Shown: positions 1 through 15,978 of the stretch, piece by piece
How the letters are laid out: every line of letters starts with the position of its first letter
Position numbering within the stretch: the stretch's first letter is position 1
Source of the DNA: a virus
Virus genome (UHGV): UHGV-0117658
Direction: 5' to 3' (one strand)
DNA: 15,978 nucleotides
Translations under genes and position numbers: made by a program
The notes under the pieces: model-generated
The model's database searches: none
Told to the model about the DNA's origin: nothing
What the model saw: the letters and a program-made list of their open reading frames with translations, nothing else

Positions 1-995
1 TTGATGGCTTACGTGGAATTTGTGCAGCAATGGTTGCTGTATTCCATCTTTACTGGAGAGCCGGAGGAGAATCAGATATATACTGGTCTCTTGAGTACAT
101 TACACTCAGCAATGTAAAACGCGCCATATATCTAACAGGAGAGTTATCTGTTGGGGTCTTTTTTATGCTGTCTGCTTTTTTATTTTTCAAAAAGGCACTA
201 GCGGACTCCTTCGATGTAAAAAGCTTTGCAATTTCACGATTCATGCGAATTTACCCACCTGTAGTTGTTCTTTTATTTATAATATATATTGCAACATTTA
301 TCATGAATCCGGATAACCATACTCCAGTATCGCAATGGTTTATATCTTCATTACCATTTATATTCAATCCGCCTGGCGCTAACATCAATGGTGTATCGCT
401 CCAGATTGCCACATCTGGTGTGTTCTGGACGTTAGTCTGGGAATTACGCCTATACCTTGCAATTCCATTTTTATATCTGATAATGAAAAACATCAAATAT
501 AAAGAAGCATTTGTTATTTTTTTAATGGGATGTGTTTTATTATTCAAGTATTTTATAAACAATGAACAACACCTGAGTTATATAATGTATTTCCTTGCAG
601 GATTTCTTGTCGCTACAATCAAGAGCAACAAGCGCCCATCAGATATAATCTGCGCTTTATTATTATTCGCAGCCATATATTTTACTCGACATGCTTACAA
701 CACTACAACTCCGCTTTATATGTTTATTGTTTTCTACACAATAAAGTGCGGATGTGATTACTTTGGCTTACTTACATCCCTGCCTGTAACTATGCTGGGA
801 ACCTGCAGTTTCTCCCTTTATTTAGTTCATGGGATAACTCAAACAGTATCTAAACATTATTTATATAGTGCAGGAAACTATGTTTGGCAGATTTGTGCAA
901 TTATTGCGGCAGGTATCATTGCGCCGGTTATGTACAAATATGTCGAAAGTCGCAGCATCATACATAAGCGTCCTCAACTTCAGATTGCAAAGTAG
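1..995 (+). CDS. Acyltransferase family 3 integral membrane protein (putative polysaccharide O-acetyltransferase), 5'-partial; the reading frame is open from the window edge
   Basis: ORF 30..995 has no in-frame stop back to position 3; the upstream translation ...DGLRGICAAMVAVFH matches the N-terminal motif of acyltransferase-3 family enzymes (OafA/Oac type). Product is very hydrophobic with multiple predicted TM segments. Visibly AT-rich relative to the phage structural genes. Confidence 0.7.
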   Translation, partial: DGLRGICAAMVAVFHLYWRAGGESDIYWSLEYITLSNVKRAIYLTGELSVGVFFMLSAFLFFKKALADSFDVKSFAISRFMRIYPPVVVLLFIIYIATFIMNPDNHTPVSQWFISSLPFIFNPPGANINGVSLQIATSGVFWTLVWELRLYLAIPFLYLIMKNIKYKEAFVIFLMGCVLLFKYFINNEQHLSYIMYFLAGFLVATIKSNKRPSDIICALLLFAAIYFTRHAYNTTTPLYMFIVFYTIKCGCDYFGLLTSLPVTMLGTCSFSLYLVHGITQTVSKHYLYSAGNYVWQICAIIAAGIIAPVMYKYVESRSIIHKRPQLQIAK

Positions 996-1002
996 AACAT
1001 TT

Positions 1003-1022
1003 GCGCCCCTGAACAGGGGCGC
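1003..1022. other. GC-rich perfect inverted repeat (gcgcccctg aa caggggcgc) 8 nt after the acyltransferase stop; possible terminator or RNA-stabilising hairpin, but no adjacent U-tract
   Basis: Read directly from sequence: 9-bp arms, 2-nt centre. Confidence 0.3.
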
Positions 1023-1090
1023 TATCCCACCACGCTGTTAAAATTTTGTTTCGTCTTACTTAGCATTTTTAAGTTGCCCATCGGAAAAAC

Positions 1091-1356
1091 GTCACAACCA
1101 TCACGCCCCACAAAAAAAAACCATTAACCATCTGATTATCATGAATAAATGTTGTGATGGTAAAACCATCACAAAACGTAACGTAAACCGTCACACCCTA
1201 TAAATTCAGCGAGTTATAAAACAGAGTTGTGATGTTTTAAGGCCGTCACACTGTGATGCTCTTGTGATGCTCTTGTGATGGTTTTCAATATATGAATTTA
1301 CTTATACATATCATATAGATAAATGATATTTTTTAAATCTGTGATGTTTGTGACGG
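1091..1356. repeat. Array of at least 10 copies of an octamer TGTGAYGG / CCRTCACA in both orientations, embedded in AT-rich DNA; includes a perfect 9-5-9 palindrome (1152..1174) and an 11-bp tandem repeat tgtgatgctct x2.7 (1253..1282); iteron-like
   Basis: Direct reading: gtcacaaccatcacg (1091-1105), ttgtgatggtaaaaccatcacaa (1152-1174), ccgtcacac (1188-1196), ttgtgatg (1227-1234), ccgtcacactgtgatgctcttgtgatgctcttgtgatgg (1243-1282), ctgtgatgtttgtgacgg (1339-1356). Convergent intergenic region with no ORF of 60 aa or more. Confidence 0.6.
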
Positions 1357-1486
1357 TTTTCCGATGCTCCCCCTAAATTTTTGAAAAAATTAGAAGTGGT
1401 CAGAAATCACCCTGATTTGTTGGTGGTTTTGTATATATCTCTGTTAGTGATTTGAGCATTGGTGCAGTACGTTAATGTAGGTATGG

Positions 1487-2419
1487 CTACAGCGGCACCG
1501 CTGAGTAAACAGGCGTCTGATTGTCCGGGTTTCCGTCTGCGTCAAGCAGCTGAACGTCCACGGCATAACGTGGCCGGAATGGATCGGCAAAATTACCACT
1601 TTTCACGGGTTCAGTATGTGCCACCACTCTGGCCATCTTTGGCAGATGAAGCCCGGAAGCCAGTTCCGGATAATGGCTCTCAATCTGTCGTTGTGTCGGT
1701 GTTTTCTGAAGGGGGCTGCCTGTGACGCGGTTCCGGGGTGTCCAGGTGATAGTCATCGTGTCATTTGTAAGATGGACTTTGGTGACCCGTTCACCGTTAA
1801 GCTCAACGCCGGGTCGTATCGTCTGGATCACCGGTAACGTTATGGTATTCCCGCCAGCAGCCCCCTGGCTGAACTCTGCCGGCACTTCGACCGGACGACC
1901 GGTAAACAGTGACTTTTCAGCACCGCCGACGTAAAGCGAACCATCAGGCAACTGGTACCAGATGTAATCCTGGATACTGAATGCCCTGCCCAGGTTGTTC
2001 AGCAACTGATAGCCGGTACCGTTATGGGTGAAATGGGGGATCGGAGTATCGCTGTAAGACACATCGGGTACACTGACACCGATCCCGCTGTTTTCCGTCA
2101 GCCAGCCGGCTACATCCCTTAATGTCGGGTGCTGAAATGAACATGGCCACATCCTTTCAAAAACACCGGCCAGCTCACGAATGAACAGACGCTGATAACC
2201 GTTTTCAGCTGGTTGTGAACGTTCAACATAACCGGTAAACCAGCGCAAAAGCAGGTCGGTATATCCCACATCCAGCCGCACCAGTTTCCCGGTATAATCA
2301 GTGGTTGTCTCTGCGGTAATAAATCCCCGACCGCAACTGTTAAGCTCCAGTACCAGGCTGGCATCAGCCAGATGCACTTCATCCGTTGAAAGGTAAAGAC
2401 GTTTAACTGGTTTCATCAT
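1487..2419 (-). CDS. Hypothetical protein (310 aa), third gene of a coupled three-gene operon; no family recognised
   Basis: Long ORF; start ATGATG overlaps the stop of the upstream gene (TAATG coupling at 2417-2421); codon composition like neighbouring phage genes; no Walker or nuclease motif seen. Confidence 0.6.
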   Translation of the reverse strand: MMKPVKRLYLSTDEVHLADASLVLELNSCGRGFITAETTTDYTGKLVRLDVGYTDLLLRWFTGYVERSQPAENGYQRLFIRELAGVFERMWPCSFQHPTLRDVAGWLTENSGIGVSVPDVSYSDTPIPHFTHNGTGYQLLNNLGRAFSIQDYIWYQLPDGSLYVGGAEKSLFTGRPVEVPAEFSQGAAGGNTITLPVIQTIRPGVELNGERVTKVHLTNDTMTITWTPRNRVTGSPLQKTPTQRQIESHYPELASGLHLPKMARVVAHTEPVKSGNFADPFRPRYAVDVQLLDADGNPDNQTPVYSAVPL

Positions 2420-9117: not shown

Positions 9118-9393
9118 ATGCGGGTAATGAAGGTTTACTGTCCGGTATGTGAGGCAAGGGCTGTTATCAAAAAAACAGCCCGAAAACACAAGGAACTGTC
9201 GGATTTATATTGCGCGTGTACCGATGTTGAATGTGGTCACACTTTTGTGATGAATATGACATTCTCACATACCATCAGCCCCAGCGCCAAATCCAGCGAT
9301 GCGTTGATCGCCACTATCTGTAACAGCCTTGATATCCAGCAAAAGCAGCTGATGTTAAAGTTTCTGAGTCAGGACGGCACTGCTGCCGCATAG
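9118..9393 (+). CDS. ogr: Ogr/Delta-family zinc-finger late transcription activator, about 91 aa with a C-terminal extension
   Basis: CPVC-x19-YCACTDVECGHTFV matches the Ogr/Delta signature (C-x2-C ... C-x-C-x4-C-G-H-T-F). Start chosen at the ATG at 9118 with GGAG 9 nt upstream; the track ORF 9064..9393 is in the same frame. Confidence 0.7.
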   Translation: MRVMKVYCPVCEARAVIKKTARKHKELSDLYCACTDVECGHTFVMNMTFSHTISPSAKSSDALIATICNSLDIQQKQLMLKFLSQDGTAAA

Positions 9394-9532: not shown

Positions 9533-10252
9533 ATGTTAATAGTCTCAGTTCTTAAATGTAGTAAAGAGTTTACCCCTAAACACGCCCAATGGCTTCATCG
9601 TCAGTTCAAAGATATTCCATCTATATGTTTAACCGATGCAGATAATATTCCTGGAGTTAACACAACCCCTTTGCTTTATAACTGGCCGGGATGGTGGTCT
9701 AAAATTGAACTATTTAATCCTAATCACCCAGTCCTTGGAGACCAAGATTTACTCTATTTTGACGTAGATGTTGTGGTCACGGGAGATATTCATATTTTCG
9801 AAGGTGCGAAGAAATTTACAATGCTTCGGGAGTTTAACCATGCCTCAAGAGTAAACTCATCAATAATGATGATTCCGGCGTCGATTAAAAAGACGATTTG
9901 GGAACAATTCATTATTGATCCTGAGAAAATTATGCGCAATTGTCAGACTGAAGACAAATGGGGTGATCAGGGATTTCTCGGTAGCATCATAAAACCAGCC
10001 CTATGGCAGGATATCATTCCTGGCTCAATTGTTAGTTATAAATGTGACATCGCCACCCCCTCGATGATTGGCTTCAATGCAAATTTAGCCTCTGAGGCTG
10101 CGACAGGGAAAGTCCCTGATAATGTGGCGGTTGTTTGCTTTCATGGCAGTCCACGCCCCTGGCGTACTGGTTTTGATTGGGTTCCTTCGTTTTCCCTGCG
10201 GGATACTCTGTACGGTAAATTAAAGAACTTTAAAATAAGAATGAAGCAATAA
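9533..10252 (+). CDS. Glycosyltransferase family 8-like (LgtC/RfaJ-type) nucleotide-sugar transferase, 239 aa; AT-rich accessory gene
   Basis: DxD motif in LYFDVDVVV, WGDQGFL and CFHGSPRPW blocks parallel GT8 motifs (YLDIDVLV, QDQDILN, HYCGPAKPW in LgtC, recalled from memory). Strong SD gggagg 6 nt before the ATG. Clearly lower GC than the flanking phage genes. Confidence 0.6.
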   Translation: MLIVSVLKCSKEFTPKHAQWLHRQFKDIPSICLTDADNIPGVNTTPLLYNWPGWWSKIELFNPNHPVLGDQDLLYFDVDVVVTGDIHIFEGAKKFTMLREFNHASRVNSSIMMIPASIKKTIWEQFIIDPEKIMRNCQTEDKWGDQGFLGSIIKPALWQDIIPGSIVSYKCDIATPSMIGFNANLASEAATGKVPDNVAVVCFHGSPRPWRTGFDWVPSFSLRDTLYGKLKNFKIRMKQ

Positions 10253-10320: not shown

Positions 10321-12978
10321 TTACTTTTCCCGGCCAAATATCCAGCAGCGGAATGTTTCCGGCATCCGTTGCATATCCCCTTTACCACGATTATGGCGCT
10401 CACTTACCGCGCTGCGCGTGGTGCTTTGTCTGATAAACCGGCGCTCATTGCCGTTTTTAAGCAGCTTTTTAATTTCCGTTAACGTGAACGGAATACGCTG
10501 CCGGTGTGCTGCGGCGACCTCTTCCATGTGATTGAAATTAACCGCGATTTCATTTTCATCTGATGAATGATTGATGCCATAAGGTGCCAGTTCATCCAAG
10601 TAATCAAACAGCTCCCAGAACTCCTGCACCAGAGGATGATCCTTTTTAAGTGCCTGACAACGTTCAACGGCCAGCGCGGTGATGGCTTCACGCGTTTTTT
10701 CTATACGTTCAACCGGCACCGGTACAACAAGTGCAAGCGCCTCCAGCAAGCCCACAAGCTGCGCGTGATTCTTTGCAATACGGATATGGCGAATACTGCT
10801 ATTAGACTCCAGCTCATTCCTAGCTCGCTCGTACCCCCTGCCGAACGTCTGCATGATTTCTTTTTCGCGCATGGTGGCCAGTAATGTGAATCCGGATACC
10901 TGGCTAACGGGGAGTTGTTCAAGTCGTTCTGCAGCGTGGCGCGTCTGAATGGACTGGCCGCGCTTGTCGGTATAGATGTGGATGATACGCTCCAGAAACG
11001 CCTTGCTGCCGTCTGTGTCGGCATTTTGCGCTATCACAATACTTCCCCTGAACGGCGGCTCATACGTCTCGTTATTGTTCGATTTGATACCCACGGCGCG
11101 GGAGGCACGACCGTTATACAGTGATTTCAGCTCGTCCCAGTCAAAAGCGCGTTGCTTGGCGTTATCGGTAGTACGGTCGCCCTCAATCAGCACAACCGGC
11201 AGATTACCGACCTGGGCGAAGTTACGGCCACGCGCGGCGGCGGTAGATTTAGATGGGTCAAACCCTTCGTATTCCTCACGGCCGGCGAGCTTCCAGAGAA
11301 ATTCTATCAGCGTGGATTTACCTGTCCCCGGCTCGCCCACGATTTCCAGAAACGGAAATGACTTGTCACGCTCGCGGATTTGTTCGGCAAACAGCGACCC
11401 CAGCCAGAACGCCAGCGCCACATACCCTTTTTCACCAAATGCCGTCCAGATATCGTCTACCCAACCCGTAGTAAACTCGTTCAGCTTCGGATTCAGATCC
11501 AGCGCCGGCGTGAGGCTCAGGCTCTTAACGCTGGCACTGTTGATTTCGAAGTAATCCTCGTCGTTCATCTCATACAGCCGGCCATCGCAAACGGCCACGC
11601 GGTTAAACAACCAGGCGGCATAATCCTTGTTATAGCCGATGAAATTCTGCGTCTTTACCTCTTTGATTTCAGGGAGGCGCATCTGGATGAACTTATCCAG
11701 CTGTTTGGTGCTGCCTGTGTACACCGCCCCTTTGGCGATGTGCAGCAGACGCTTTTTGAACTCGGCGGAGCTGGTGAGCTGATTAGCCGTGAAAGTATCT
11801 TTCACGGCTGGCCGGTTAGGCATACTGACTTTCACGTAATACCAGGACTCGTCCGTAGGTTCAGACCGCTGAAAGTAAAGCGGCGTCAGCCAGCAGTTAG
11901 CTATTTCGGTCACGCCGCCTGACTCTTTAACCGCCCGTTCTTTGGCCTCCCACTCCATCACCACTTCGGTACCGGTATTGGTGATGCGCTCATAGGCTCG
12001 CATATACCTGTCCAGATCCAGCTCAAACCAGTACATGCGGGAGTTATGCTCAAAGTAGAACGAGTGCCACTCGTTATGCTGATGCATGAGCAGCGCTTTC
12101 TCAGTCGGGCTTTTTGCCAGAAGGAGATCGCCATAGTAGCGATAATTTTTAATGTCCGACTTACTGAACCGGTTACGTAACAACAGGTCATTCCAGTCCA
12201 GCGATGCCGATGATTTCACCGGCTGCGCGGCACGAGTTTTCCATCCTGCAGCATCACTACGGGCAGCGAACGCCAGTGTGTGCTTTGTGCCGGCTTTATC
12301 GCCGTCAAACGCCCATACAAGACGTGGACGTGGTTTTTCACCCAGTTCTTTGGCCAGCGTATCCAGTGCGGCCAGCGGATAGTTGTTACTGCTCAGTGTG
12401 GCAACTGCAGGTAACCCTGCCTGGCACAGACTCAGCGCGTTGAAGATTCCCTCAGTGATCCAGATTTCGTTCACTTCCTGCAGGTTGATAAAGGGAGGAA
12501 CCCACCAGTGACCGACATAGCTTCCCCTGATGTTGGCTTTCTGCTTACCGAAGCGCTGCGGCTGGTCAATGATGCGCTCCCATGTTGCACCGCATGACAG
12601 CGAAAATCTGACCGTTGCCGACCCCATGCCATCTTTCACGAATGCACCCTGGGTAAAACAGCCTTTTAATGGCTCAGTCTCCAGCCCTCTGGCCTCGCGC
12701 AGATACGCCTCAGCTACTGCATGGGGGTTATCTTCTGTGGTCTGGTAACGTTTTGACCAGTCTTCAAAGATATCCGGATACAGCTCTTTCACGACAATCT
12801 GATGTGCGCAGTTATTTTCACGGCCACATTTCAGAATCCAGGGCTTTTCTATGCTGGTAAATAATTCGCGCTTACGACAGGCAGGGCAAACGCCCTGCTG
12901 CAAATACTTATCCCGCTCTTTAAATTCAAAGTCCCGAACAAGACGGCGCACAACGTCCTGTTGTATCGTTTCGTTCAT
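10321..12978 (-). CDS. Replicative primase-helicase, P4-alpha-like architecture (N-terminal Cys4 zinc ribbon, TOPRIM primase domain, C-terminal P-loop NTPase), about 885 aa
   Basis: CPACRK...CGRENNCAH zinc ribbon; TOPRIM-like ITEGIFNALSL and FDGDKAG motifs; Walker A GEPGTGKST. The track ORF begins at a TTG (13014); the first ATG (MNETIQQ) at 12978 is used here. Confidence 0.8.
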   Translation of the reverse strand: MNETIQQDVVRRLVRDFEFKERDKYLQQGVCPACRKRELFTSIEKPWILKCGRENNCAHQIVVKELYPDIFEDWSKRYQTTEDNPHAVAEAYLREARGLETEPLKGCFTQGAFVKDGMGSATVRFSLSCGATWERIIDQPQRFGKQKANIRGSYVGHWWVPPFINLQEVNEIWITEGIFNALSLCQAGLPAVATLSSNNYPLAALDTLAKELGEKPRPRLVWAFDGDKAGTKHTLAFAARSDAAGWKTRAAQPVKSSASLDWNDLLLRNRFSKSDIKNYRYYGDLLLAKSPTEKALLMHQHNEWHSFYFEHNSRMYWFELDLDRYMRAYERITNTGTEVVMEWEAKERAVKESGGVTEIANCWLTPLYFQRSEPTDESWYYVKVSMPNRPAVKDTFTANQLTSSAEFKKRLLHIAKGAVYTGSTKQLDKFIQMRLPEIKEVKTQNFIGYNKDYAAWLFNRVAVCDGRLYEMNDEDYFEINSASVKSLSLTPALDLNPKLNEFTTGWVDDIWTAFGEKGYVALAFWLGSLFAEQIRERDKSFPFLEIVGEPGTGKSTLIEFLWKLAGREEYEGFDPSKSTAAARGRNFAQVGNLPVVLIEGDRTTDNAKQRAFDWDELKSLYNGRASRAVGIKSNNNETYEPPFRGSIVIAQNADTDGSKAFLERIIHIYTDKRGQSIQTRHAAERLEQLPVSQVSGFTLLATMREKEIMQTFGRGYERARNELESNSSIRHIRIAKNHAQLVGLLEALALVVPVPVERIEKTREAITALAVERCQALKKDHPLVQEFWELFDYLDELAPYGINHSSDENEIAVNFNHMEEVAAAHRQRIPFTLTEIKKLLKNGNERRFIRQSTTRSAVSERHNRGKGDMQRMPETFRCWIFGREK

Positions 12979-13017
12979 AAATAATCCAGATGTGAAATAA
13001 TGGGTAAAAGGCAAAAA

Positions 13018-13236
13018 CTATATTCTGTACTGCTTGTTATATCGCTCATGTGTCATTAGTTCCCAGCTTCTGCCCTTATCCTTACTCAGTAATCGCCAGC
13101 GATAAGAAACATGAACAGAGAAATAATGTTTTGGCTTAATAACCTGATATACCTTTTTGCCGTTGTAATATTCTGTCAGCACTGAAAATGCCTTGTGAAT
13201 GACACTTTCACTTGCATGAGAGGTCACTGTAAGCAT
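13018..13236 (-). CDS. Possible small basic protein (72 aa), start 2 nt after the exonuclease stop; uncertain
   Basis: ORF only; AT-rich; no SD recognised; occupies the otherwise 260-bp gap between the exonuclease and primase genes. Confidence 0.25.
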   Translation of the reverse strand: MLTVTSHASESVIHKAFSVLTEYYNGKKVYQVIKPKHYFSVHVSYRWRLLSKDKGRSWELMTHERYNKQYRI

Positions 13237-14461: not shown

Positions 14462-14569
14462 CTGTGGTATCCTTCGTTAGTTTGGGTTCCTAGGGCGCTT
14501 TAAGTCGTTCTAGGGTTCTTTTGTCAAGGTTCTTTTGTAAGAACCAATAATAGTTACGATACAAGAACC
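14462..14569. promoter_or_regulatory. Immunity switch region between cox and C: divergent promoters with multiple GGTTCT half-sites (direct and inverted) and two CTAGGG motifs
   Basis: Direct reading: gggttcc (14484), gttctaggg (14507), ggttcttttgt x2 (14514, 14529; 15-bp period), inverted aagaacc x2 (14539, 14563); ctaggg at 14490 and 14510. Confidence 0.55.
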
Positions 14570-14869: not shown

Positions 14870-14935
14870 ACATCTGGTTTTTCTATGCGTTAGCGCAAAA
14901 TTTACATAATGATTCATACATCGGAGGGCTTCGCT

Positions 14936-15928
14936 ATGTCGATTAAGAAGCTTGATGATGGTCGTTTTGAAGTGGACGTTAGACCGCGCGGAACCTCAGG
15001 AAGAAGGATTCGACGCAAATTTGACAGAAAGGCGGAAGCACAGGCATACGAGCGGTATGTACTGACAAACTTTCACGATAAAGAATGGCAGGATAAACCC
15101 GCAGACAGGAGGCTTGTATCCGAGTTAATTTCTTTATGGTGGAGCTACCATGGAAAGAATCACAACTATGGTGACTCATATAAAAAGCGTTTGGAAAAAA
15201 TCAACCGAGAAATGGCGGAACCCAGAGTGTACGAGCTTACCCGCAACTTTCTGATGAAATATCGTGCAGAACGACTTCATAGTGGAGTATCTGCTGGCAC
15301 GGTAAACAGGGATTTCTGTTCCATGTCCAGCATGTTCAGTTTGCTGATAGATATGGAAGAATTTCATCACGAAAACCCGTTTCGCGCCGTGAAGAAGTTA
15401 CGTCTGGAAAACACAGAAATGTCATTTCTGTCCGAAGAAGAGATCCACCATTTGCTGAATGCCCTTACAGGGGATGATCGCAGAGTTGTCGTTCTTTGCC
15501 TGAATACAGGAGCACGATGGGGTGAAGCCAGTAATCTTAAAGCTGAAAACGTGATAAGTAACCGTGTGACCTTTGTTAAGACCAAAACCGGCCCAGCTCG
15601 TACTGTTCCGATATCGAAGGAAATCGCGGACTACATCCTTACACGCAAATCGGGGAAATTGTTCGATACCAACTATGAGCGAGTTCGCGATGTTCTTCGT
15701 AAGATTAAGCCAGACTTGCCGAAAGGTCAGGCACTGCATGTTTTACGCCATACCTTCGCAACACATTTCATGATCAACGGCGGGAATATCATCACGCTAC
15801 AGCGTATTTTGGGTCATACAACAATCGAGCAAACAATGACATATGCTCACTTCGCCCCAGATTATCTGACTGATGCCATACGATTTAACCCTATGCGTGG
15901 GAGTGTCCACATAATGTCCACCGACTAG
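14936..15928 (+). CDS. int: P2-family tyrosine integrase, about 330 aa
   Basis: Begins MSIKKLDDGRFEVDVRP after a GGAGG SD (the track ORF starts 9 codons upstream); catalytic-region blocks CLNTGARWGEA, NRVTFVKTKT, HVLRHTFATHFMINGG, ITLQRILGHT.IEQTM.YAHFAP match P2 Int as recalled. Confidence 0.9.
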   Translation: MSIKKLDDGRFEVDVRPRGTSGRRIRRKFDRKAEAQAYERYVLTNFHDKEWQDKPADRRLVSELISLWWSYHGKNHNYGDSYKKRLEKINREMAEPRVYELTRNFLMKYRAERLHSGVSAGTVNRDFCSMSSMFSLLIDMEEFHHENPFRAVKKLRLENTEMSFLSEEEIHHLLNALTGDDRRVVVLCLNTGARWGEASNLKAENVISNRVTFVKTKTGPARTVPISKEIADYILTRKSGKLFDTNYERVRDVLRKIKPDLPKGQALHVLRHTFATHFMINGGNIITLQRILGHTTIEQTMTYAHFAPDYLTDAIRFNPMRGSVHIMSTD

Positions 15929-15950: not shown

Positions 15951-15978
15951 TTAATAAGGCGCTCATAACATATTGATT

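Follow-up and report, generated by a model that had tools for sequence, protein, structure and literature searches.

In the replication of phage P2, gpA nicks within the A gene. A large P2-like branch (among others phiCTX, RSA1/RSY1, Smp131 and Evevirus) has a primase-helicase in place of gpA, and in the literature searched, which did not extend to the original phiCTX papers, no origin was found assigned to the phiCTX-type phage group. The database record of phiCTX annotates its R3 region as repeats, and no function is assigned to them. The origins of the Staphylococcus aureus pathogenicity islands (SaPI) consist of 6-12 iterons with an A+T-rich centre and at least two opposed iterons on each side, just downstream of the initiator gene; the initiator reads the iterons by a winged helix in its C-terminal domain, and PriRep5 is a primase-helicase fusion (PMC9371898). 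The subject of the present analysis is an array of iterons in UHGV virus genome UHGV-0117658, a stretch of 15,978 bp whose whole length is called the window here, and a primase-helicase encoded in the same stretch.

The window is an E. coli prophage with its insertion site beside raiA, and its nearest sequenced phage is Escherichia phage ESSI2_ev239 (Peduoviridae, Evevirus; RefSeq NC_049392); the prophage is Evevirus-like and belongs to the P2 family. The analysis confirms the array, shows that related phages share its architecture, ties it to one primase family and finds that its iteron word co-varies with the C-terminus of the primase. As judged from these comparisons of sequence, the array is probably the iteron-type replication origin of the prophage, or at least an essential cis-acting site at which the initiator binds, and it offers a testable origin candidate for the branch that lacks gpA.

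The array and its conserved design

The octamer TGTGAYGG occurs six times in the window, always within 1153-1356, against 0.96 copies expected, and six or more copies were reached in none of 200 shuffles. The heptamer TGTGAYG is found 14 times in the 15,978 bp, 11 of them within 1090-1355. The relaxed word [TC]GTGAYG gives 12 sites within 1068-1377, seven on the plus strand and five on the minus strand, whose consensus is T-TGTGAYG-G-TTT. In 100 block-wise shuffles the best count of a 6-mer per 300 bp was mostly 4-5 and once 7, compared with 8 observed. The whole array is framed by a 37-nt imperfect inverted repeat (1068-1104 and 1341-1377, 81% complementary). A sequence-only reading of the window had described at least ten copies of one octamer family in both orientations within about 270 bp, with a perfect palindrome, an 11-bp tandem repeat and interleaved AT-rich DNA; each of these is borne out, at the positions listed in Table 1. 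The palindrome may be read as 9-5-9 or, with arms at 1152-1161 and 1165-1174, as 10-3-10.

The array lies in a convergent gap, between the end of the acyltransferase open reading frame (ORF) at 995 and the end of a minus-strand tail-gene ORF at 1487, and no reading frame longer than 53 codons crosses it; the stretch is non-coding, as had been proposed. An Rfam search of window positions 900-1600 returned zero matches, and therefore no known RNA accounts for the array region. The iterons form a single cluster in the window (11 of 14 heptamers) and likewise in the complete ESSI2 genome (11 of 16).

Several other identities were considered and rejected. A scan of the array region for promoters and terminators gave weak, A+T-driven promoter-like matches only, and its "terminators" were the iteron palindromes themselves. 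CRP sites, which need a spacing of N6, were ruled out by the spacing TGTGA-N11-TCACA, and Ogr sites, which need N12, by TGT-N15-ACA. ESSI2 has a DnaA box with 8 of 9 positions matching (CTATCCACA), but the window does not share it. Another pair of iteron-like words, at 9236-9252 inside the coding sequence of an Ogr-like zinc-finger gene, was judged to be due to chance. GC skew was uninformative at the scale of the window. Partition or regulatory sites, named as alternatives by the sequence-only reading, found no support.

Complete genomes encoding the phrog_1139 primase (phiCTX orf37-type), the family of the window primase, were scanned on both strands for dense clusters of short words. The scan recovers crr of P4, taken as positive control, and finds no such array in P2, which replicates with gpA. 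Arrays of the same design, one per genome, were present in all eight complete phage genomes examined that carry this primase: ESSI2_ev239 (iteron TGTGAYG), phiCTX (GGTAAY; its record gives just the label "R3 repeats" and two IHF sites), Smp131, the Ralstonia phage RSY1 and Halomonas vB_HboP_4908 (GGTAAY in each), clone 2F_1 (GGTTAC/AGTAAC), phi3 (TGTTCCGG, about 20 copies) and UFJF_PfPro (TGTCAG). Ten further low-G+C prophage loci, on IMG/VR contigs fetched via the primase, carry arrays of TGTGACC, TGTAACC, TGTAACG or TGTAAGG. Across lineages the words are TGTGAYGG, TGTGACC, TGTAACC, TGTAACG, TGTAAGG, GGTAAY, TGTTCCGG and TGTCAG.

The shared design runs from a G-run and (T)CGGAAA(A) through two iterons, an IHF consensus and an iteron cluster with a central back-to-back pair (GTNACATGTNAC, conserved in related arrays). 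Most members then have another IHF consensus; further iterons follow, and next an A+T-rich stretch, after which the array closes with an iteron pair, TTTCCG and a C-run. In some lineages (T)CGGAAA(A) is replaced by GCGCAAA or CTGAAAAA, variants that the detector allowed; ends formed by CGGAAA and two iterons are found in the window, L025, L027, L028, L030, L033, L146, RSY1 and the Halomonas phage. The IHF-consensus sites occupy equivalent positions, most relatives having two and the window one, and an A+T-rich stretch adjoins the right terminal iteron pair in all related arrays. The distance between the outer CGGAAA and TTTCCG is 275-299 bp across ten distinct array lineages with differing iteron words; it is 282 bp in the window (1082-1363) and 281 bp in the same-lineage L001 and ESSI2, and the internal site maps of related arrays are collinear. 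The left end of the window array, CATCGGAAAAA-CGTCACA-A-CCATCAC, which the right end mirrors, is almost the same as that of RSY1, CATCGGAAAAA-GGTAAT-TTC-GGTAAC, except for the iteron word. With inverted ends (CGGAAA(A) and two iterons, as a rule flanked outside by a G/C run), a length of 275-299 bp, 10-14 iterons in both orientations, IHF sites and a phrog_1139 primase as the operational definition of a phiCTX-type array, the window array belongs to the type.

Within the lineage, the number of 11-bp units varies across E. coli strains, three versus four: the window has two TGTGATGCTCT and one TGTGATGG, and L011 (E. coli NT1F10) has three and TGTGATGG, in prophages that are otherwise 97-100% identical. 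The cores of the iterons are kept and the spacers drift both in the ESSI2 copy (92% identical) and in a plasmid copy (71% identical), which is the conservation pattern of protein-binding sites.

The sequence-only reading would have fallen had the array been a common chromosomal repeat. It is not: 22 of 5,426 E. coli genomes have it, in single copy, and its location in this one prophage never varies. The array of L146 had no match among E. coli complete genomes. A non-autonomous mobile element, of the kind of a miniature inverted-repeat transposable element, or a chance cluster of repeats devoid of phage function, is an extremely improbable description. It would fit an element of about 310 bp with 37-nt imperfect terminal inverted repeats, a partial copy of which occurs at an unrelated plasmid locus. 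However, no target-site duplication was seen at the array, and the architecture is conserved across phages of Gamma- and Betaproteobacteria while the word changes in concert, which indicates selection for protein binding and not transposition.

The primase-helicase and the switching of the iteron word

In addition to a Cys4 motif at its N-terminus, the primase-helicase of the window has a Toprim domain and a P-loop of the DUF5906/SF3 type (Pfam). It is 40-47% identical to phiCTX orf37, RSY1 ORF47 and relatives, and the protein search gave at least 971 homologues below E = 1e-20; a phmmer search against the sequences in the PDB gave zero matches to solved structures. In the AlphaFold2 model of residues 690-897 (pLDDT, the predicted local distance difference test score, 93), a helical bundle is followed by a winged helix of the order alpha-beta-alpha-alpha-beta-beta, and SCCmec Cch (5dgk) and SaPI Rep (8tch), the neighbours whose biological role is related, are among the best structural neighbours of the modelled C-terminal domain. 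The origin-binding domain of P4 alpha was not among the fold matches of this model. The predicted C-terminal winged helix is the most variable part of the protein. For the Smp131 primase (L007, 27700-27958), the C-terminus given in the record fails to align with those of its relatives, and a frameshift or sequencing error in that record is suggested.

This primase is the only protein common to all array-bearing genomes. The array lies 60-500 bp downstream of its stop codon in phi3, L025, L028, L029 and L030; for L027 and L032-L035 the distance is 1.1-1.3 kb. Between L027 and L028/L029, alignment of the DNA survives only at the primase gene and the array; the two travel as a module. The sequence-only reading had proposed that the array could be an origin or cis site for the primase encoded 9 kb away; the arrays in all eight complete genomes with this primase family support it, as do the adjacency of array and primase, their joint survival in DNA alignment and the switching described below.

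The loci L032-L035 encode primases that are 89-94% identical (90% between L032 and L033) and their arrays are collinear. The word nevertheless differs at each site: it is TGTGACC(t) throughout the L032 array, TGTAACC(t) throughout that of L033, and TGTAACCG in both L034 and L035. All 12 collinear sites are switched between L032 and L033. Such a simultaneous change at all 12-14 sites is expected from co-evolution with a sequence-specific binding protein. Among these close relatives the differences between primases are concentrated in the C-terminal 100 residues, which hold 32 of the 90 differences for L032 versus L033. Within this part, the predicted recognition helix is identical within pairs that share an iteron (L028/L029, L034/L035, window/ESSI2) and differs by 2-4 residues between close relatives whose iterons differ (L032, L033 and L034 mutually, and L027 versus L028). 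The covariation with the iteron word appears only among such close relatives. Segment-wise identity among eight distant primases shows the C-terminus to be least conserved everywhere, with no clean covariation at the level of iteron classes. Of what the sequence-only reading had proposed to look for in related elements, the arrays were found in all eight genomes and the covariation in close relatives; the class-level signal did not appear among the distant primases.

A number of observations weigh against the array being the origin read by this primase. In the window lineage the two are not neighbours: about 9 kb separate them in the window, and about 4.5 kb in ESSI2, whose map is circular. 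In L032-L035, two further proteins change along with the iteron class, namely the integrase at its N-terminus and a protein of 100 amino acids (aa) whose gene immediately precedes that of the primase, and therefore this comparison alone cannot single out the primase. Divergence of the C-terminus, taken as a whole segment, is about equal within the GGTAAY group and between groups. A truncated array is found on two Salmonella IncF plasmids (CP054717, CP053580) that have no primase, and no paper was found on binding or origin activity in this family. Arrays were also unseen in most of the high-G+C prophage loci (L036-L091), but their contigs mostly stop at the integrase, short of the expected array region, and weigh neither for nor against.

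The variation of the integrase N-terminus with iteron class bears on a very unlikely alternative, in which the array is an accessory recombination site whose extra arm-type or Cox-like excisionase sites aid the attP complex. The array follows int and attP by 0.1-1.5 kb in phiCTX, RSY1, Smp131, the Halomonas phage, UFJF_PfPro and L032-L035 and contains IHF sites, as attP regions do; furthermore, in the window lineage the arm-type word TGTCCAC(A) equals the iteron GTCACA plus one inserted base. Nevertheless, the array is intact within the prophage, and the crossover point therefore lies outside it. The arm word (reverse complement TGTGGAC) is distinct from the iteron and stands at both prophage ends (window 15905-15922; L001 18755-18830; ESSI2 26740-26970), where the attR region of the window also has an exact IHF consensus (15966-15978). 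The arm repeats of phiCTX (GTTCCCA; R1, R2) likewise differ from its array word. Between attL and the array stands an acyltransferase gene of 1.1 kb, and in phi3, L025 and L028 the integrase is 3.3-5.5 kb off while the array adjoins the primase gene. A Cox-like protein has to bind the control region between cox and C (14462-14569), and this region contains no TGTGAYG; its lack of iterons also speaks against a Cox or CI operator.

Gene order varies among the arrays' genomes. It is primase, small genes, int, attP, array and cos in the phiCTX-like phages, and int, attP, acyltransferase, array and cos in the Evevirus lineage. In the phages whose array closely follows the primase gene (phi3, L025, L028, L029 and L030) the integrase is 3-5 kb off (3.3-5.5 kb for phi3, L025 and L028), beyond regulatory genes and the primase gene, with other early genes also in between in L025 and L028. 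The portal and terminase genes of phi3 and L028 are likewise some 3 kb from the array.

The proximity to cos brings in a highly improbable alternative, namely an accessory packaging site like lambda cosB, at which the small terminase subunit and IHF would bind to position the cleavage of cos. Cos is 170-460 bp from the array in phiCTX, Smp131, RSY1 and the Halomonas phage, as is the putative cos of the intact Evevirus-type prophage, and the IHF sites of the array recall those of lambda cosB. On the other hand, L146 shares with the L001 lineage its cos, its CTGAAAT repeats and an 89%-identical tail gene, yet its iteron is TGTAACC, and P2 has the same terminase type and the same conserved 55-bp cos core without an array. 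The 3 kb between array and portal/terminase genes are occupied by cargo genes in L028 and by small ORFs in phi3; cos was not located in these two, and in P2 it adjoins the portal gene. Moreover, the separate CTGAAAT repeats directly flank cos and are a better candidate for terminase recognition.

These repeats deserve mention in their own right. In L001 (20660-20810), L146 (5920-6050), L122 and L132, the putative cos GCAGGCGGGTGCGGTGTAGCGCC has several repeats of (A)CTGAAAT(C) at its sides, some in one orientation and some in the other. They are conserved in phages with differing origin arrays, lie in a region that is deleted in the window, and constitute a candidate terminase recognition site.

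For the origin, we infer the binding protein, the role of IHF, the place of melting and the start of replication at the array as follows. The primase-helicase (897 aa, Toprim/SF3) would bind the iterons, about 8-13 bp of the form T-TGTGAYG-G-TTT, through its C-terminal winged helix. Two sites would be occupied at each end, in opposite directions, together with further sites inside, and IHF would bend the DNA at its site (1125-1137). Hexamers of the primase-helicase may then assemble on both sides of the 86% A+T core (1284-1339), melt this core as the DNA-unwinding region, load themselves and prime DNA synthesis.

It is also conceivable, but quite unlikely, that the array binds the primase-helicase while replication starts elsewhere, so that it would be a cis enhancer or a site of copy control or handcuffing, like P4 crr or the incompatibility iterons of plasmids. 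Indeed, the array that immediately follows alpha in P4 is not ori but crr, with 10 type I octamers in 300 bp; it lies between alpha and attP, the same position as the array in many relatives, and the computations establish linkage to the primase, not initiation. Against this, the window and ESSI2 have a single iteron cluster and one array per genome was seen in the other phages, and features of a start site are present in the form of an 86% A+T core flanked by opposed pairs of iterons.

A wider interpretation is possible but rather doubtful: the arrays may represent an unrecognised and widespread class of phage replicon with an origin cassette of fixed geometry (about 285 bp), whose word is rewritten in concert with the winged helix of the primase. 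The cassette would comprise CGGAAA-capped inverted ends, IHF sites and 10-14 iterons. If this were true, there would be replication-specificity groups among P2-like phages across Proteobacteria, switching could spare co-resident prophages cross-activation or titration of the initiator, and orphan or half arrays (the Salmonella IncF plasmids, L027, L004) could be decoys or hitch-hiking origins. As to the candidate origin itself, the natural specificity variants, which differ in one base per iteron and a few residues of one helix, could provide material for studies of initiator-origin co-evolution. The array is also of value for annotation, since it flags a replication module still present in prophages that are defective, like the one in the window, and it bears on cross-talk among co-resident prophages, satellites and plasmids.

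The host prophage and variant loci

Table 1. Features of the array and of the prophage that carries it (window positions)
Feature	Position	Strand	Description
Left terminal inverted repeat	1068-1105		CATCGGAAAAA at 1079-1089, then two minus iterons
Left terminal iterons	1090-1096; 1098-1105	-	CGTCACA; CCATCACG
IHF consensus site	1125-1137	-	AATCAGATGGTTA (WATCARNNNNTTR); exact; one of only 4 matches in the window
Perfect palindrome	1152-1174		Two facing iterons, TTGTGATGGT AAA ACCATCACAA; arms TTGTGATGGT/ACCATCACAA
Single iteron	1188-1195	-	CCGTCACA
Single iteron	1228-1235	+	TGTGATGT
Back-to-back iteron pair	1243-1281		CCGTCACA-C-TGTGATGC, running into the tandem
11-bp tandem	1252-1281		TGTGATGCTCT-TGTGATGCTCT-TGTGATGG; three iterons, starts 1252, 1263, 1274
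A+T-rich core	1284-1339		86% A+T versus 51% for the window
Right terminal inverted repeat	1340-1377		Two plus iterons, 1340-1347 and 1349-1356
Right end beyond iterons	1357-1366; 1369-1373		TTTTCCGATG; C-run
Primase-helicase, proposed initiator	10321-13014	-	Up to 897 aa; phrog_1139, 1241 bits
Predicted C-terminal winged helix	10324-10635	-	About residues 794-897
Predicted recognition helix	10456-10482	-	Residues 845-853
Integrase	14909-15928		Retained
CI-like and Cox-like regulators; exonuclease			Retained
Portal, large terminase, scaffold and capsid genes			Retained
Acyl_transf_3 O-acetyltransferase cargo gene	30-995		Between attL and array; likely lysogenic-conversion gene
Glycosyltransferase-like gene (phrog_1962)	9533-10252		Between portal and primase genes; likely lysogenic-conversion cargo
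72-aa ORF	13018-13236	-	Directly upstream of primase gene; ParE-like toxin domain PF24732, E = 8e-17

An intact copy of the window prophage, L001 (NZ_AP023286), served as the reference for deletions. Compared with it, the window has two clean deletions, with junctions at 1489/1490 and 3998/3999. The first (L001 20490-21790, 1.3 kb) took away the cos region together with half of the last tail gene, at its 3' side, and the second (L001 24301-35746, 11.4 kb) extends from a tail-fibre assembly gene into the small terminase gene. Cos was looked for across the window and is absent, and the prophage is defective because it lacks cos. Similar deletion derivatives are carried by several E. coli genomes.

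The RefSeq record of ESSI2_ev239 (L002) shows irregularities at both ends. Positions 29127-29203 of NC_049392 are a Nextera adapter (CTGTCTCTTATACACATCTCCGAGCCCACGAGAC...) followed by poly-A at the end of the record, and the first approximately 115 nt (1-115) have no counterpart in L001 at the equivalent spot just before GGTGCGGTGTAGCGCC. The true sequence ends with ...AAACCGCAGGCGGGGGC, probably the physical (cos) end of the virion DNA.

Incomplete or displaced forms of the array were observed at some related loci. On the Salmonella plasmid CP054717 (L003, 7960-8230), the left two-thirds of the array are 71% identical; this copy lacks the right end but has kept the iteron cores. The copies on the Salmonella IncF plasmids sit in a divergent intergenic region of conjugative plasmids and could be orphan remnants, decoys or hitch-hiking sites. 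A related prophage that also sits at raiA, L004 (E. coli EC42405, 7860-8060), has lost all but two of the iterons, and these are adjoined by about seven tandem copies of the octamer CGCTTCAT; its cargo consists of an ATP-dependent nuclease and a YafO toxin in place of the acyltransferase. In L157 (6300-6375), the expected position of the array downstream of cos has about eight tandem units of GGGACTCC(T) instead. In L027 (8929-9100), a truncated half-array of TGTAACC lies beside the complete array of TGTAACG and looks like the leftover of an origin exchange.

Comparison with known systems

By analogy, the array would work like ori and crr of P4 and like the SaPI origins, yet it lies outside the P4 system. 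As in the array, ori and crr of P4 are formed by octamer iterons in both orientations in about 300 bp of A+T-rich DNA, and P4 alpha, like the window primase, unites Toprim primase and SF3-type helicase in one protein whose C-terminal part is for DNA binding (the last predicted in the window). The P4 order is alpha, crr, attP, int, so that crr is directly downstream of alpha as the arrays are in many relatives, and there is a resemblance between the iteron of phi3, TGTTCCGG, and the type I repeat of P4, TGTTCACC. However, an hhalign comparison with P4 alpha matches Toprim only (window residues 157-313, columns 159-316 of the primase alignment profile, versus alpha 183-342, probability 76%), and the window lineage has one array per genome where P4 has ori and crr, both of them needed in cis. 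CGGAAA-ended framing inverted repeats and IHF consensus sites characterize the window array; neither is annotated for P4. The analogy to P4 drawn by the sequence-only reading therefore holds for an octamer array in both orientations, but not for homology to alpha beyond Toprim nor for the pair of sites.

The likeness to SaPI origins lies in the A+T core (1284-1339) between minus iterons at 1090 and 1098 and plus iterons at 1340 and 1349. As in SaPI, the array adjoins the primase gene in phi3, L025, L028, L029 and L030, but not in the window or ESSI2. The window primase has no detectable sequence homology to SaPI Rep, the host phylum is another one, and the element is a P2-like myovirus and not a satellite. 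Its iterons are 8-13 bp long as compared with 5-6 bp in SaPI, and IHF sites and G-run/CGGAAA ends belong to the window array.

Plasmid iteron origins (F oriS/RepE, P1 oriR/RepA) also place initiator words beside an A+T-rich unwinding region and vary in the number of iterons, and the F iteron also begins with TGTGAC. Unlike in the array, the iterons of plasmids measure 17-22 bp, stand mostly in direct orientation and are accompanied by DnaA boxes; the plasmid initiator is of the Rep_3 type, without the helicase or primase activity that distinguishes a primase-helicase.

The R3 repeats between attP and cos of phiCTX are a homologous element. The phiCTX word is GGTAAY and not TGTGAYGG, and no cargo gene stands between attP and R3. 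Nevertheless, R3 comprises about 16 GGTAAY words in both orientations in about 290 bp with two annotated IHF sites; like the window array it follows int and attP, it precedes cos as in the intact relatives of the window, and the primase of phiCTX, orf37, is 41% identical to that of the window.

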